4,921 nt of DNA from a virus (lineage: Duplodnaviria > Heunggongvirae > Uroviricota > Caudoviricetes): positions 1-4,921 of IMG/VR virus record IMGVR_UViG_3300029471_000044, one strand, 5' to 3'. Within the stretch, counting starts at the first letter, position 1. Each line of letters opens with the position of its first letter. The notes under the pieces were generated by a model. It ran no database searches and had not been told where the DNA came from. It worked only from the letters and a program-made list of their open reading frames with translations. The position numbers were made by a program, and so were the translations under genes. Below, piece by piece: positions 1 through 4,919 of the stretch.

Positions 1-90
1 GTAGTTTTTTCTGAATTTATCCAGCACCTCCGATACGGAATTGCCGGAACAGCGGCGCGCGTCATCCGCACCATACAGAGGCGCTGGCAT
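1..90 (-). CDS. Hypothetical protein, N-terminal 30 codons only (continues past the left edge)
   Basis: ATG at 90-88 preceded by SD GGAG (complement of 97-100) with 6-nt spacing; open frame to position 1 giving MPAPLYGADDARRCSGNSVSEVLDKFRKNY...; starts 16 nt after the exonuclease stop. Confidence 0.5.
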   Translation of the reverse strand, partial: MPAPLYGADDARRCSGNSVSEVLDKFRKNY

Positions 91-106
91 GGTTTTCTCC
101 TGTTGA

Positions 107-655
107 TTATTTAGCTAACTTTTTCCAGATCGCTGAAACGTATTTGGCTTGGTGAATGGCATCATCAAGCGCGTTGTGGCGAGTTCCTTTGAATGGCATA
201 TCTCGCTTAGGGTCGAATCCTATTACCTTCCCAAGTTCGACGATTGTTCTTACGTCGCGGTCATTCCACCACTGCCACGGAACTGGCTGCCCTGTCAGCG
301 AATAACTGTTTCGGAGAATAACGCAGTCAAATGATGCTCCATTCCCCCAAACCTGAACGAATTTGTGGTTAGCGTTCTTTATGATGAATTCAGATAACCA
401 TGAAAGAGCCGTTGAAAGCTCCTGAGTGTTGCTGGTTAGCGATTTTCTGGCTTCTTCACTCTGTTCCAGCCACCATAAAATCGTTGAAGCGTCAGGACGC
501 GCTCGATATCGCATTGATGATTCAAGCGAGATATTTACCGAGAACTCTTCTCCTGTTTCTCCGGTATTCGGGTCAAAGAATACCGCCCCAATAGAAATAA
601 CTGGCGCGTATGGCCCGTTGCCCATTGTTTCAAGGTCAACCATTAAGTGATTCAT
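107..655 (-). CDS. DEDDh-type 3'-5' exonuclease (DnaQ/RNase T-like fold), phage exonuclease
   Basis: 182-aa ORF. Motif I MVDLETMG (D-x-E) at the N-terminus, motif II VWGNGASFDCVIL (Asp), motif III HNALDDAIHQAKY (His-x4-Asp) near the C-terminus. ATG 655-653 with SD AAGGA 5 nt upstream; stop TAA 107-109. Confidence 0.85.
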   Translation of the reverse strand: MNHLMVDLETMGNGPYAPVISIGAVFFDPNTGETGEEFSVNISLESSMRYRARPDASTILWWLEQSEEARKSLTSNTQELSTALSWLSEFIIKNANHKFVQVWGNGASFDCVILRNSYSLTGQPVPWQWWNDRDVRTIVELGKVIGFDPKRDMPFKGTRHNALDDAIHQAKYVSAIWKKLAK

Positions 656-663
656 GTAAGTCC

Positions 664-1142
664 TTAAATTGCGTGAATAGCGTGACGAGGGAAGGGGAGA
701 GTTACTGGCTCCTCGTCTGGGTAGATAGGTTTGTTATGTTTGTGCCACTCGACATGACATGACTTGCAGAGCCACATCACATCGGTTGGTTTGCTGTAGT
801 CGCAGTGGTGCGCCTGTGGTTTACATTCTGATCCGCAGCACTCACATTGTGGTGGTCGGATTAGCTTACCGTCGCGCAAAAAATTACCCACGATGATGTG
901 GGCTTTTCTTTTCCATGGGTTGCTCTGAATGAACCGCTTTTTGGCTGCGTTACACCGTTCTCTGCCGCGTTCCGATGATTGATATTCTCTCCTTGCTGAT
1001 ACTCGATGTGGCAATCCCGCGCGCTCTTTGTCATATTCAGCCAGGCAAGCCCGGCAAGCGGCAGTTAATCCATCTCTGGATGCTCTTCTGATTTGAAAGT
1101 CCCTTTCTTCCTNNNNNNNNNNNNNNNNNNNCAGATTTTCAT
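664..1142 (-). CDS. HNH endonuclease, interrupted by a 19-N run (1113-1131); start and frame across the gap uncertain
   Basis: ORF-track product 664-1014 carries an HNH-like core (CECCGSECKPQAHHCDYSKPTDVMWLCKSCHVEWHKH: His-His, then LC-x2-CH, flanked by Cys pairs). The same frame stays open with no stop from 1014 up to the N-run (...EERDFQIRRASRDGLTAACRACLAEYDKERAG-). A strong start context, AGGAGC-N5-ATG (ATG 1142-1140), sits just beyond the N-run but is out of frame if the gap is taken as exactly 19 nt. Stop TAA 664-666. Confidence 0.65.
1113..1131. other. Run of 19 N (unknown or masked sequence) inside the HNH gene
   Basis: Directly visible in the sequence. Confidence 1.
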
Positions 1143-1151
1143 ATTCAGCTC

Positions 1152-1625
1152 CTAGAACGGAATATCCGAATCGTCGAAGTTCATAGGTGGTTCGCTGTGA
1201 TTTCCATGCTGCTGAGGTTGCTGTCTTTGTTGATGACCATTATTTCGCTGAGGTGAAGACTGTTCATTGCCTCCTTGCTTGCCACCAAGCATTTGCATGG
1301 TTCCACCAACGCCCACGATGACTTCGGTAGTGAACCTATCCTGTCCGCTTTGATCCTGCCATTTTCTTGTCCGCAATTTTCCTTCAAGATAAACCTCAGA
1401 GCCTTTTCGCAGATATTCGCTGGCAATTTCTGCCAGTTTCCCGCTCATTACCACGCGGTGCCACTCCGTCTGCTCCTTTTGCTCTCCAGTTTGCTTATCA
1501 CGCCATTGTTCTGACGTAGCAACTGTAAGGTTTGCAAATGCCGTTCCTGATGGTGAATATCTGATTTCTGGATCATGCCCAAGGCGACCAATAATGATCA
1601 CCTTATTTACGCCTCTGCTTGCCAT
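1152..1625 (-). CDS. ssb: Single-stranded DNA-binding protein (phage-encoded SSB)
   Basis: 157-aa ORF. N-terminus [23 protein letters not shown] and motifs [58 protein letters not shown] closely match E. coli SSB as I recall it; Gly/Gln-rich linker and acidic tail ending DSDIPF. ATG 1625-1623, stop TAG 1152-1154. Confidence 0.95.
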
Positions 1626-2333
1626 TTATGCCGCCTGTTTTAGCTCGTTAACTCTGATGTTCATTACCTGAACGCATTTAGCCTGCGCCTCCTCGTTTCC
1701 AGCCATTAATTGCCAGTCATGCTGATAACGCTCGATGAGTTTTTTCTTGTCAGTTTCTGTCGCTGCATAATCGCTGAAGTCTTTCAGGATTTGTTCGCAG
1801 TCAACCGATGGAGATTTCTGGTTGGTATTTTCTGGTGATGGTTTGTTATCTGATGCTGGGATTGCCCATCCCGGCAGCGATGGAGGGAGCCAGTAAAATC
1901 CTGTCCCATCCTTCAGTTTTGCCCTGTGCCACCCCTGCTTTTTATCGAGAGATGTTTGTGCGAAACCTTCCTCAAGGTTATACAGATACCGACCGATTCC
2001 CCATTGAACGGCAGCGCGCTTCATTGCGCCGGAACGACCACCTTTGACTGCTTCTACCTGCGTGTTTTCAGCAGCATCCCATTTGGTTACCCATTCGGAA
2101 TCAATCTTTATTGATATGCCGCATTCAACGCCGCCGTTGTTGGGAATATCGCGGTATTCATTGCGCCATCCTGCTTTGCCGCAAACATCGTCCAGGCGTT
2201 TCATGATTGCCCGGTTCGTGACATAAGCCAGCACCATAGCCCACACTTTGCCATCGCGTGTTTTACCGCTTTGCTGTATTCGCCATTCGATATCTTCAGG
2301 GCTGAATGGCTCATCGAATTTGTTCAAATCCAT
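1626..2333 (-). CDS. Single-strand annealing protein (recombinase) of the Rad52 superfamily (Sak/Erf-like)
   Basis: 235-aa ORF. Contains the signature blocks I associate with Rad52-like phage SSAPs: ...AYVTNRAIMKRLDDVCGKAGWRNEY... and ...GAMKRAAVQWGIGRYLYNL.... ATG 2333-2331 with SD GAGGTG 4 nt upstream; stop TAA overlaps the SSB start region. Confidence 0.8.
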   Translation of the reverse strand: MDLNKFDEPFSPEDIEWRIQQSGKTRDGKVWAMVLAYVTNRAIMKRLDDVCGKAGWRNEYRDIPNNGGVECGISIKIDSEWVTKWDAAENTQVEAVKGGRSGAMKRAAVQWGIGRYLYNLEEGFAQTSLDKKQGWHRAKLKDGTGFYWLPPSLPGWAIPASDNKPSPENTNQKSPSVDCEQILKDFSDYAATETDKKKLIERYQHDWQLMAGNEEAQAKCVQVMNIRVNELKQAA

Positions 2334-2341
2334 AATTCACC

Positions 2342-2597
2342 TCAGAATGGACATGGCCCAAGGAAATAACGCTGATTTAATACTTCAGTCTTTGCCGCAT
2401 TCAAAAATACGCGAACACCTTCACGATCTCCCTTCTGGCGATANNNNNNNNNNNNNNNNNNNTGCGTGTACATGCGCCTCTGTAACTTGCTCTCCTTCAC
2501 TGTGGTTGCAAGTGACATGAATATCTCCTTCGTTACCGATTAATTCTTTCATCTGACGAATGAATTCTTCGTCTGAACAGTTATCTGTAAAACTCAT
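2342..2597 (-). CDS. Small hypothetical protein in the kil-like position, interrupted by a 19-N run (2444-2462); true C-terminus uncertain
   Basis: ATG 2597-2595 (alternative GTG 2612) opens MSFTDNCSDEEFIRQMKELIGNEGDIHVTCNHSEGEQVTEAHVHA up to the N-run. Taking the gap literally the frame stops at 2421. A second frame past the gap is open for 33 codons (YRQKGDREGVRVFLNAAKTEVLNQRYFLGPCPF) to TGA 2342-2344, which overlaps the SD of the SSAP gene; this is in frame if the gap is 20 nt. The SD for ATG 2597 is poorly spaced. Confidence 0.4.
2444..2462. other. Run of 19 N (unknown or masked sequence) inside a small CDS
   Basis: Directly visible in the sequence. Confidence 1.
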
Positions 2598-2948: not shown

Positions 2949-3197
2949 CTACTCTATTTCTTCTTCGAATGATTTTATTAGTCGGTCAATAACATCATCC
3001 GTTTCAATATCATTTCCGTCTGATTGCTTTAATACATCTATTGATTCTGCAGCGGTAAATTCCATCGCTGTGAGAAACTCGACAATTGCACACTCAACGA
3101 CATATCGTTCTTCATCTGTACGACATGAGATAAAAGAGCATTTAATTGCTGTTATTACTTTTTGTTTAAGCTCTGCAGGGTAATCAGTTTTTATCAT
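2949..3197 (-). CDS. Hypothetical strongly acidic small protein (82 aa)
   Basis: ATG 3197-3195 with SD GGAG 6 nt upstream; stop TAG 2949-2951. 20 Asp+Glu against 9 Lys+Arg, with an acidic C-terminus ETDDVIDRLIKSFEEEIE. First gene after the terminator at 3211-3239. Confidence 0.7.
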   Translation of the reverse strand: MIKTDYPAELKQKVITAIKCSFISCRTDEERYVVECAIVEFLTAMEFTAAESIDVLKQSDGNDIETDDVIDRLIKSFEEEIE

Positions 3198-4137: not shown

Positions 4138-4338
4138 TCAGGCAGCCTTGTTGTTCTGTTTACCAAGTTCTCTGGCAATCATTGCCGTCGTTCGTATTGC
4201 CCATTTATCGACATATTTCCCATCTTCCATTACAGGAAACATTTCTTCAGGCTTAACCATGCATTCCGATTGCAGCTTGCATCCATTGCATCGCTTGAAT
4301 TGTCCACACCATTGATTTTTATCAATAGTCGTAGTCAT
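4138..4338 (-). CDS. Hypothetical small Cys-rich protein (66 aa), possible zinc-ribbon-like C-x5-C-x2-C-x5-C
   Basis: ATG 4338-4336; weak SD (AGGA, 8-nt spacing); Cys at residues 11, 17, 20, 26; stop TGA 4138-4140. Confidence 0.6.
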   Translation of the reverse strand: MTTTIDKNQWCGQFKRCNGCKLQSECMVKPEEMFPVMEDGKYVDKWAIRTTAMIARELGKQNNKAA

Positions 4339-4716: not shown

Positions 4717-4741
4717 AATAAAAAACCCACCGAAGCGGGCT
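4717..4741 (-). terminator. Rho-independent terminator on the minus strand, overlapping the stop codon of the upstream partial ORF
   Basis: Minus-strand RNA: AG-CCCGC-UUCG-GUGGG-UU then UUUUAUU; 5-bp core stem (4726-4730/4735-4739, one G-U pair) with a UUCG tetraloop, extendable to 7 bp, followed by a U-tract (complement of AATAAAAAA 4717-4725). Confidence 0.6.
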
Positions 4742-4919
4742 ATGACCATTTTTTATTTGGATTTCGTTGGTGAGCGTGATTAACAACTCTGTGCATTACA
4801 TCCTCATATTTTTCATCTTCAATTTTTTCGACATCGCGAGGAAATGGTGTTGCTAATGCTTTGTCAACTTTATCCATTGGGTCTTCATTAATCTTATATT
4901 CAGGACCGTCATCTATAGC
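4740..4919 (-). CDS. Hypothetical acidic protein, C-terminal 59 codons only (5' end beyond the right edge)
   Basis: Frame open from the window edge to TAG 4740-4742 (...AIDDGPEYKINEDPMDKVDKALATPFPRDVEKIEDEKYEDVMHRVVNHAHQRNPNKKWS); same strand as the rest of the operon, with a terminator straight after its stop. Not in the ORF track because no start codon is inside the window. Confidence 0.45.
   Translation of the reverse strand, partial: AIDDGPEYKINEDPMDKVDKALATPFPRDVEKIEDEKYEDVMHRVVNHAHQRNPNKKWS

Follow-up and report, generated by a model that had tools for sequence, protein, structure and literature searches.

In lambda Red (Exo-Bet-Gam) and Rac RecET, the single-strand annealing protein (SSAP) is accompanied by a dedicated 5'-3' exonuclease, and lambda Gam inhibits RecBCD outright. 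For most phage SSAPs, no 5'-3' exonuclease gene lies alongside (Lopes 2010). P22 (arf, erf, abc1, abc2) lacks one as well and hijacks RecBCD: once converted by Abc2, the host enzyme resects 5'-3' and so supplies the annealing protein (Murphy 2000, summarised in PMC5928155). In HK620 (hkaM, Sak4, SSB, Abc2), the SSB stimulated Sak4 recombineering, and oligonucleotide recombineering was independent of Abc2 (Hutinet et al. 2018; PMC5928155). DnaQ-like 3'-5' nucleases in lambdoid Rec modules were described by Zheng, Casjens, Davidson, Amundsen & Smith (Genome Res 2025), who called their presence curious. Their class comprises an anti-RecBCD protein, an SSB, a nuclease and an SAP, and the DnaQ-like gene of epsilon34 was accepted as a Rec-module member.

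The window (the whole stretch of DNA analysed, 4,921 nt) probably carries the Rec module in the early-left (pL) operon of a P22-like or lambdoid E. coli phage or prophage. Its architecture is already known, being that of an ordinary recombination cluster of a lambda/P22-like E. coli phage, catalogued in 2025. The module runs from a small ORF in the arf position through a Rad52/Sak-type SSAP, an SSB, an optional HNH-like gene and an optional DexA-family 3'-5' exonuclease to Abc2. Phage CurroJimenez_Bas106 and an E. coli prophage carry a module 98% identical to this one, and abc2 adjoins the exonuclease gene in both.

All four genes named in the sequence-only reading (SSAP, SSB, HNH-like and DEDDh exonuclease) lie on the minus strand. 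Their tight coupling, also claimed there, was borne out by gaps of 0–16 nt: 0 nt between the SSAP stop and the SSB ATG, 9 nt between SSB and HNH, 8 nt between HNH and exonuclease and 16 nt between exonuclease and abc2. The whole window contained 4 promoter-like sites, with 8.8 expected by chance. Upstream members of the early-left operon, a kil-like gene and cIII (PF08134, E=7.7e-30), occupy positions 2594–2916 of the minus strand, and their order agrees with that in lambda, P22 and HK620. Immediately upstream of the SSAP, the ORF list gives a small minus-strand ORF in the arf/hkaM position (2342–2518), which is broken by an N-mask at 2444–2462. By position, the corresponding gene in relatives is annotated as 'recombinase protein' (CurroJimenez) or as hypothetical (E. 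coli KCJ3K291).

Profile searches confirmed the earlier identities of the SSAP, the SSB and the exonuclease. The product of 1626–2333 (minus strand, 235 aa) is a Rad52/Sak-type SSAP with predicted annealing activity. Residues 4–136 matched Pfam Rad52_Rad22 (PF04098) at E=5e-26 (91.9 bits against a cutoff of 20.3), the protein matched PHROG 1097 (E=7e-130), and its RefSeq name is 'Rad52/Rad22 family DNA repair protein'. In the Pfam search, no Erf, RecT or Bet profile matched it at E≤0.01. A sequence search for relatives of solved structure returned none for the SSAP, and NCBIfam gave no match for the SSAP, the exonuclease, the HNH-like protein or Abc2. The adjoining gene (1152–1625, minus strand, 157 aa) encodes a phage SSB of the bacterial type, with an OB-fold domain (PF00436, E=1.1e-38; TIGR00621, 181 bits against a cutoff of 54) and the canonical acidic C-terminus ...NFDDSDIPF. 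The cognate SSB also has a second natural form, in which a 15-residue extension follows DIPF.

The exonuclease gene (107–655, minus strand, 182 aa) matched PF16473 (Rv2179c-like) over its full length (E=2.9e-73) and PHROG 255 (exonuclease). The DEDDh residues D7 and E9 (Exo I), D110 (Exo II) and H160 and D165 (Exo III, Hx4D) were invariant in an alignment of 14 homologues with 58–87% identity. The closest solved structure was T4 DexA (8kel/8ken, E=1e-13), which shares the DEDDh fold and the catalytic residues, and identity to T4, T2 and T6 dexA was 31%. DexA is 45 residues longer than the window protein, which has no equivalent of D90: A83 stands at this position. W130 aligns with DexA W152; the equivalent of DexA D169 is ambiguous and aligns to F147. 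T4 DexA, a 3'-5' exonuclease, acts preferentially on ssDNA, shows some dsDNA activity and helps end degradation in intron homing, that is, end processing during homing-endonuclease-initiated recombination. From this homologue, the polarity of the window enzyme on DNA is predicted to be 3'-5', in agreement with the polarity assigned to its family in the sequence-only reading. The two genes differ in setting: the DNA of the window phage is unmodified, and its gene lies in an SSAP/SSB module, whereas dexA lies in the T4 early region.

The family is widespread, with 1617 phage records from many phage types. Next to xis/int lies a paralogue of about 60% identity, and this holds for phage LLS too, although LLS is devoid of a Rec module. 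The family is thus also used outside SSAP recombination.

The gene cluster extends beyond position 107, and the next gene after the exonuclease is abc2. Positions 1–90 of the minus strand encode its first 30 codons before the gene runs off the window end, and 29 of the 30 residues are identical to the N-terminus of P22 Abc2 (MPAPLYGADDARRCSGNSVSEVLDKFRKNY). Abc2 is full length in the 98% identical relatives (PF11043, E=2.4e-61 for a full-length relative), and an abc2 or phage anti-RecBCD protein is annotated at the matching position in CurroJimenez_Bas106 and E. coli KCJ3K291. An abc2 gene (PF11043) and an SSAP gene thus share one operon, as in P22-type, Abc2-dependent Rec modules. By transfer from genetic and biochemical work on P22 (summarised in PMC5928155 and PMC12315714), recombination would depend on host RecBCD modified by Abc2. 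With abc2 adjacent and presumably recruiting RecBCD for resection, no nuclease would be missing from the module.

In every E. coli/Salmonella-type locus, and in many others, the gene after the exonuclease encodes Abc2 or a divergent homologue. The rule that the exonuclease is always followed by Abc2 holds for the E. coli/Salmonella type only; elsewhere, other small proteins take this place. The following gene is not an Abc2 homologue in the non-E. coli loci L042, L175 and L177–L181, and the Abc2-RecBCD account of resection is therefore unproven there.

Among described phages, epsilon34 is arranged like the window (SSAP-SSB-DnaQ-like exonuclease-Abc2), with about 90% nucleotide identity to window positions 1–2350. 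The window differs in having an HNH gene between ssb and the exonuclease, which is the CurroJimenez_Bas106 arrangement and was seen in 3 of 80 contigs. In Sf6, the order is SSAP-SSB-HNH-Abc2, and the exonuclease is missing. P22 resembles the window in operon position, in combining an SSAP with Abc2 and in having no phage 5'-3' exonuclease with RecBCD hijacked. Its SSAP, however, is Erf, and the slot of P22 abc1 is filled in the window by ssb, HNH and the exonuclease. In one contig (L061), the same Rad52-type SSAP as in the window goes with abc1-abc2 instead. HK620 shares the SSAP, cognate SSB and Abc2, and some relatives of the window exonuclease come after a Sak4-SSB pair as in HK620 (L042, L175). 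In contrast to the window, the SSAP of HK620 has a RecA-like fold, its SSB is not annotated as an OB protein and there is no exonuclease. Lambda Red and RecET agree with the window in operon position and in recombination by single-strand annealing and differ from it in their dedicated 5'-3' exonuclease. As no 5'-3' PD-(D/E)XK exonuclease (Exo/RecE/YqaJ) was found among the window ORFs, the module is not of the lambda Red/RecET type.

We checked how constant the exonuclease is in 80 viral contigs with an SSAP at least 98% identical to that of the window. The core SSAP-SSB-Abc2 was constant. It stood alone in 33 contigs, with the exonuclease in 27, with HNH in 17 and with both in 3. The exonuclease was thus present in 30 and missing from 50 contigs, and HNH was present in 20; these contigs do not stand for independent events, because the sampling of prophage lineages is clonal. 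In complete E. coli genomes, the SSAP was found at 435 places (about 7% of genomes), the exonuclease at most at 185 (about 3%) and HNH at 106. The junctions of both cassettes are clean and fall at the stop codon and the TAATCA...GGAG ribosome-site region. The exonuclease is dispensable for the design of the module.

The exonuclease clade with at least 67% identity to the window protein gave 52 informative loci. In 51 of them there is, just upstream of the exonuclease, either an SSB gene of bacterial or HK620 type or the remnant of one. In some of these, the window included, an HNH gene intervenes. The same adjacency recurs at 48–57% identity in Aeromonas, Photorhabdus, Thalassotalea and Tolumonas. 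The SSAPs upstream belong to four families (Rad52-type, Erf-type, Sak4 and a 288-aa AAA_24 protein), which rules out that the exonuclease is specific to Rad52-type SSAPs. It travels with the SSB and not with any single annealing protein. In 54 related Rec-module loci, searched up to 6–7 kb around the exonuclease, there were no matches to lambda Exo, RecE, Bet, RecT or Gam, and neither lambda Exo nor the RecE nuclease domain gave a tblastn match. The window has none of these five either.

The sequence-only reading had presented the DEDDh enzyme as the SSAP's nuclease partner instead of a lambda Exo/RecE-type enzyme, so that a non-canonical route might be needed. There is indeed no Exo/RecE-type gene in the window. 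The partnership is unsupported, because the next gene is abc2, the exonuclease is dispensable and not Rad52-specific, most phage SSAPs lack an adjoining 5'-3' exonuclease and the combination has already been published. For the same reasons (abc2 adjoining, the exonuclease in only 30 of 80 same-SSAP contigs, several SSAP families), the need for a non-canonical route is likewise unsupported. The hedge that the nuclease does something different, such as trimming or flap removal, is our best guess too.

Most likely, the functional core is SSAP, SSB and Abc2, working in the manner of P22 and HK620. By analogy with P22, Abc2 would bind RecC, and host RecBCD, thus re-programmed, would open and resect DNA ends independently of Chi. 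The phage SSB would cover the resulting single strand and, as in HK620, stimulate its cognate annealing protein. Pairing of complementary strands by the latter could then lead to circularisation, recombination-dependent replication and mosaic exchange. The exonuclease would be an accessory cassette and not the resection nuclease, shortening or removing 3' ssDNA ends on SSB-coated DNA. Its targets might be non-homologous 3' tails or flaps after annealing, or surplus 3' strands, and such trimming would permit extension or ligation of annealed joints, much as T4 DexA acts in the end processing of intron homing. This trimming role is our best guess. Removal of 3' flaps is not needed for circularisation by terminal redundancy. 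Nor does a role in promoting recombination readily suggest itself, since the usual effect of 3'-5' ssDNA exonucleases in E. coli is to reduce recombination (Lovett 2011, cited in Zheng et al.). Taken as a whole, a P22-like Rec module with an SSAP-SSB-Abc2 core, a selfish HNH gene and an optional accessory exonuclease is the account we think probable.

It is unlikely that the DEDDh enzyme itself performs resection, chewing 3' strands at duplex ends so that the SSB covers 5' tails which the SSAP pairs. Its absence from most loci with the same SSAP and SSB and the presence of abc2 beside it in the window and all close relatives speak against this, although some loci have no recognisable Abc2, and the enzyme was never seen alongside lambda Exo/RecE (54 loci) and nearly always beside SSB. 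DexA prefers ssDNA, its dsDNA activity notwithstanding, and the E. coli homologue EcD leaves unmodified dsDNA uncut; EcD is, however, only 37% identical to the window protein. An SSB-enhanced annealing pathway driven by a 3' exonuclease is documented in vaccinia (PMC9415595). There, the E9 3'-5' exonuclease and the I3 SSB act in annealing-type viral recombination, the only precedent for a non-canonical route; E9 is an essential proofreading domain of the polymerase, whereas the window exonuclease is stand-alone, dispensable and placed beside an SSAP and Abc2. With similarly low probability, SSB and exonuclease form a functional unit: SSB-coated DNA would attract the DexA-like enzyme, whose 3'-end processing would alter what the SSAP can join. 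This may take the form of poxvirus-style 3'-5' resection or of removal of non-homologous 3' tails. In the latter version, diverged, mosaic phage genomes could recombine. The cassette of such a unit would influence phage mosaicism in a tunable way, and it could usefully be added to recombineering systems when ends are imperfect.

Two further proposals were weighed. Degradation of ssDNA fragments and oligonucleotides (e.g. RecBCD products) to mononucleotides that serve phage DNA synthesis, with no part in annealing, would fit the documented scavenging role of DexA and the occurrence of the family in so many phage types. The LLS paralogue by xis/int lies near a putative deoxyribonucleoside 5'-monophosphate phosphatase gene, and a gene with a dATP/dGTP pyrophosphohydrolase domain lies downstream in the KCJ3K291 prophage. 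Such a salvage role is nonetheless quite improbable, because this clade is found strictly inside Rec modules, beside SSB and with four SSAP families, which is not expected of a salvage enzyme. Temperate lambdoid phages are not known to degrade the host chromosome. More doubtful still is warfare between phages, in which the enzyme would destroy the 5hmC DNA of T-even competitors. Plasmid-borne EcD was reported to degrade T4 DNA and to protect against T4 as the 'HREX' defence (PMC12153337), and the window protein keeps the catalytic residues and has W130 opposite DexA W152 and A83 opposite D90. The HREX claim rests on a single report, however, and the equivalent of D169 is ambiguous. PADLOC gave no meaningful match (best E=2e-4). 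The gene would give its host no protection, since a lysogen should keep the pL operon shut off, by analogy with lambda and P22. We reconstructed the EcD sequence from the primers in the supplement of that paper. EcD belongs to a different clade, carries A78 and lies in the early region of a P2-like prophage. That the window exonuclease and the published anti-T4 protein are one and the same was rejected, given 37% identity, 189 aa against 182 aa and a different type of locus.

Under the preferred reading of the exonuclease as an optional accessory, the puzzle of Zheng et al. 2025, the role of a 3'-5' exonuclease in a recombination module, is sharpened: the enzyme is optional, SSB-linked and found in modules without a 5'-3' exonuclease, mostly of the Abc2 type. 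This bears on the design of recombineering tools, where SSAP-SSB pairs could be used with or without the DexA-like enzyme, and on how the HREX claim is read, as its test protein EcD is itself a prophage gene.

The HNH nuclease of the sequence-only reading is present as a gene, with other boundaries. It spans 664–1142 on the minus strand (about 159 aa, HNH-like, putatively beta-beta-alpha-Me). The ORF-finder result of 664–1014 is too short owing to a 19-N mask at 1113–1131, which corresponds to 20 nt in relatives. The HNH assignment found no profile behind it: Pfam gave no HNH family at E≤1, sequence searches of NCBIfam and the PDB were equally negative, and Foldseek of the model against the PDB gave nothing significant. 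Its homologue clusters (n=78) are named 'hypothetical' save for a few SSB, exonuclease or HTH names on apparent gene fusions. As only 20 of 80 otherwise identical loci carry it, HNH was rejected as a functional member of the module. The gene is a selfish, free-standing gene of a predicted homing-type endonuclease, a mobile insertion in the ssb 3' end. Two HNH alleles, just 48% identical, occupy one site, and the last 14 codons of HNH recur at the end of ssb genes without HNH. Some HNH copies are decayed or fused.

Every real gene of the window is encoded on the minus strand; together they make up the early-left (pL) operon of a phage of the lambdoid/P22-like type. At the right end (4740-4877, PHROG 5632) is the C-terminal part of a termination factor that resembles Nun and not classical N; this region matches mEp235 and HK75, both annotated Nun. 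It is followed by ral (anti-restriction type, 4138-4338), several small function-unassigned genes, an anti-restriction-family gene (2949-3197, PHROG 14587 member), cIII with a kil-like gene (2594-2916) and a small ORF in the arf position (2342-2518). Two separate anti-restriction-type genes, ral and the PHROG 14587 member, are thereby found in one operon. The window contains two N-masks of exactly 19 N each (1113-1131 and 2444-2462), the latter interrupting the arf-position ORF.

The sequence-only reading had described a Rad52-superfamily annealing protein (SSAP) paired with a 3'-5' DEDDh exonuclease in one tightly coupled operon. This observation was confirmed by the family matches of the SSAP (1626-2333; Pfam Rad52_Rad22, E=5e-26), the SSB (1152-1625; PF00436, E=1e-38; DDSDIPF tip) and the DnaQ-like exonuclease (107-655; PF16473 over the full length, E=2.9e-73), by gaps of 0, 9, 8 and 16 nt between the genes and by few promoter-like sites (4 in the whole window vs. 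8.8 expected by chance). The catalytic residues D7, E9, D110, H160 and D165 were all invariant among exonuclease homologues, down to 58% identity. The nearest solved relative is T4 DexA (8kel, E=1e-13), and identity to the T4/T2/T6 dexA genes is 31%. The HNH-like gene between ssb and the exonuclease gene had no Pfam or NCBIfam model. The most important correction is that the cluster continues past position 107 into abc2, whose first 30 residues (1-90) are 29/30 identical to the P22 anti-RecBCD protein Abc2. In relatives at 98% identity, namely phage CurroJimenez_Bas106 and a prophage of E. coli KCJ3K291, a full abc2 directly follows the exonuclease gene, and the full-length product matches PF11043 (E=2.4e-61).

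In 80 viral contigs whose SSAP shares at least 98% identity with that of the window, the genes downstream of the SSAP were classified. The most frequent order was SSAP-SSB-Abc2 (33 contigs), followed by SSAP-SSB-exonuclease-Abc2 (27), SSAP-SSB-HNH-Abc2 (17) and the arrangement of the window, SSAP-SSB-HNH-exonuclease-Abc2 (3). Among 5426 complete E. coli genomes, there were 435 places with the SSAP, at most 185 with the exonuclease and 106 with the HNH gene; 94 genomes had the complete four-gene arrangement. Although contigs and genomes are not independent events, these counts show that SSAP-SSB-Abc2 is the constant core and that both nucleases are optional. Stop codons and ribosome-site sequences mark the exact boundaries of both nuclease cassettes. 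While the window has both nucleases, Sf6 has only the HNH gene and epsilon34 only the exonuclease. In a survey of 325 lambdoid phages, Zheng, Casjens, Davidson, Amundsen and Smith (Genome Res 2025) named the epsilon34 gene a legitimate Rec-module member and defined a class of anti-RecBCD, SSB, nuclease and SAP (25 phages). As the epsilon34 module is that of the window minus HNH, the finding is real, yet already described.

Loci around exonuclease homologues were taken from viral contigs and one genome per species and scored against reference proteins from lambda, P22, HK620 and Rac. Homologues with at least 67% identity to the window protein form a clade that, in the sampled loci, was always inside a Rec module. 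An SSB gene or SSB remnant lay just upstream in 51 of 52 informative loci (exception: L045; remnant only: L019), in some, including the window, with the HNH gene in between. The SSB was of the bacterial or the HK620 type, and the annealing protein was Rad52-type, Erf-type, Sak4 or a 288-aa Walker-A ATPase (Pfam AAA_24, E=4.5e-34; L035, L037, L039, L045, L174, L181). By BLAST, this ATPase differs from HK620 Sak4; it is presumably a further annealing protein of the RecA-like kind. SSB-exonuclease adjacency recurs in Aeromonas, Photorhabdus, Thalassotalea and Tolumonas (exonuclease identity 48-57%). The gene after the exonuclease was Abc2 or a divergent homologue in all E. coli/Salmonella-type loci and many others. 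In several non-E. coli loci (L042, L175, L178, L180), an unrelated ORF of 97-133 aa (MMSPEQLLAALRRDSRTH...) with no Pfam match holds this position and could encode another RecBCD modulator. Searches of the exonuclease loci gave no hit to lambda Exo, RecE, Bet, RecT or Gam. A second clade (~60% identity) adjoins xis/int outside any Rec module (L046-L082, L182-L249, L250); it includes gene 34 of LLS (L250), a phage without any Rec module. Both clades occur in one contig (L027), and locus L061 combines a Rad52-type SSAP and abc1-abc2 with a distal xis/int-clade paralogue as its sole exonuclease.

The idea that the DEDDh enzyme substitutes for lambda Exo was not supported, with abc2 adjacent and the exonuclease optional. 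In P22, Abc2 binds RecC and turns RecBCD into an activity preparing ends for the annealing protein, and in HK620 oligonucleotide recombineering the annealing protein was stimulated by its cognate SSB, not by Abc2 (PMC5928155). Many phage SSAPs have no adjacent 5'-3' exonuclease (Lopes 2010). By analogy with P22, Abc2-modified host RecBCD would be the end-processing activity for the SSAP, a paradigm that explains the apparent missing-nuclease gap; on this view, resection need not come from the DEDDh enzyme and for the most part does not. A poxvirus-like route, with the DEDDh enzyme as the 3'-5' resection nuclease of the module, has a precedent but is unlikely given the optional exonuclease and the presence of abc2. 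We infer instead that the exonuclease would trim 3' ends on SSB-coated ssDNA, based on the strict SSB linkage, the ssDNA preference of T4 DexA and its documented help in degrading ends in homing-endonuclease-initiated T4 recombination. Nucleotide salvage, the other role of DexA, is a rather improbable function here.

Still less probable is the anti-T4 function 'HREX', reported for the E. coli DexA homologue EcD (Kang et al. 2025, PMC12153337). EcD, reconstructed from the primers in the supplement (189 aa, A78), shares just 37% identity with the window exonuclease. Its gene lies in the early region of a P2-like prophage, with cox/int on one side and a Dam methylase gene on the other, so the EcD data cannot be carried over directly. 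Lambda and P22 also suggest, by analogy, that a gene of the pL operon should be silent in the lysogen. The primers and A78 match a gene on viral contigs (L254, L259, L269, L270, L272 and L275, there at 6401-6970, minus strand), with repressor, cox and integrase genes nearby and ParE-like and Dam methylase genes downstream. Hence, this 'bacterial' host defence protein appears to be prophage-encoded; prophages are never mentioned in Kang et al. 2025.

The HNH-like gene occupies 664-1142 (about 159 aa); a 116-aa ORF at 664-1014 was ruled out as this gene. Its reading frame looks broken because the 19-N mask at 1113-1131 replaces 20 nt of near-identical relatives. In HNH-less loci, the ssb frame runs 15 codons beyond ...DDDIPF (APVTLPFPRHAIHAI). 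Where the HNH gene is present, ssb ends immediately behind DIPF, and the last 14 codons of the HNH gene are the same tail (PVTLPFPRHAIHAI; window ssb 3' end 1152-1160, HNH 3' end 664-710). The insertion restores the free DIPF end of SSB and takes over the codons of the extension. Judging by how SSB of E. coli binds its partners, a blocked tip might alter the set of host partners open to the phage SSB. Similar extensions occur in SSBs beside exonuclease homologues of Thalassotalea and Tolumonas (L090, L093, L238, L240). A second HNH allele (48% identical) has the same site and tail, homologues of other genera have no such tail, and fused SSB-HNH or HNH-exonuclease entries (P0131, P0134, P0145, P0171) and a truncated copy (L102, premature stop at codon 10) exist. 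Together, these features are the signature of a putative homing-type endonuclease gene of the free-standing kind. The same caution on HNH genes is advised by Zheng et al. (Genome Res 2025). In about 100 complete E. coli genomes (e.g. H107-H109), RefSeq has no annotation for this gene, and almost all of the 78 homologue clusters are named 'hypothetical'.

Residues 129-164 of the SSAP (GWHRAKLKDGTGFYWLPPSLPGWAIP, window 1842-1949), located between its annealing domain and C-terminal region, weakly resemble the PRP40 WW domain (E about 0.1), which may be a chance match.
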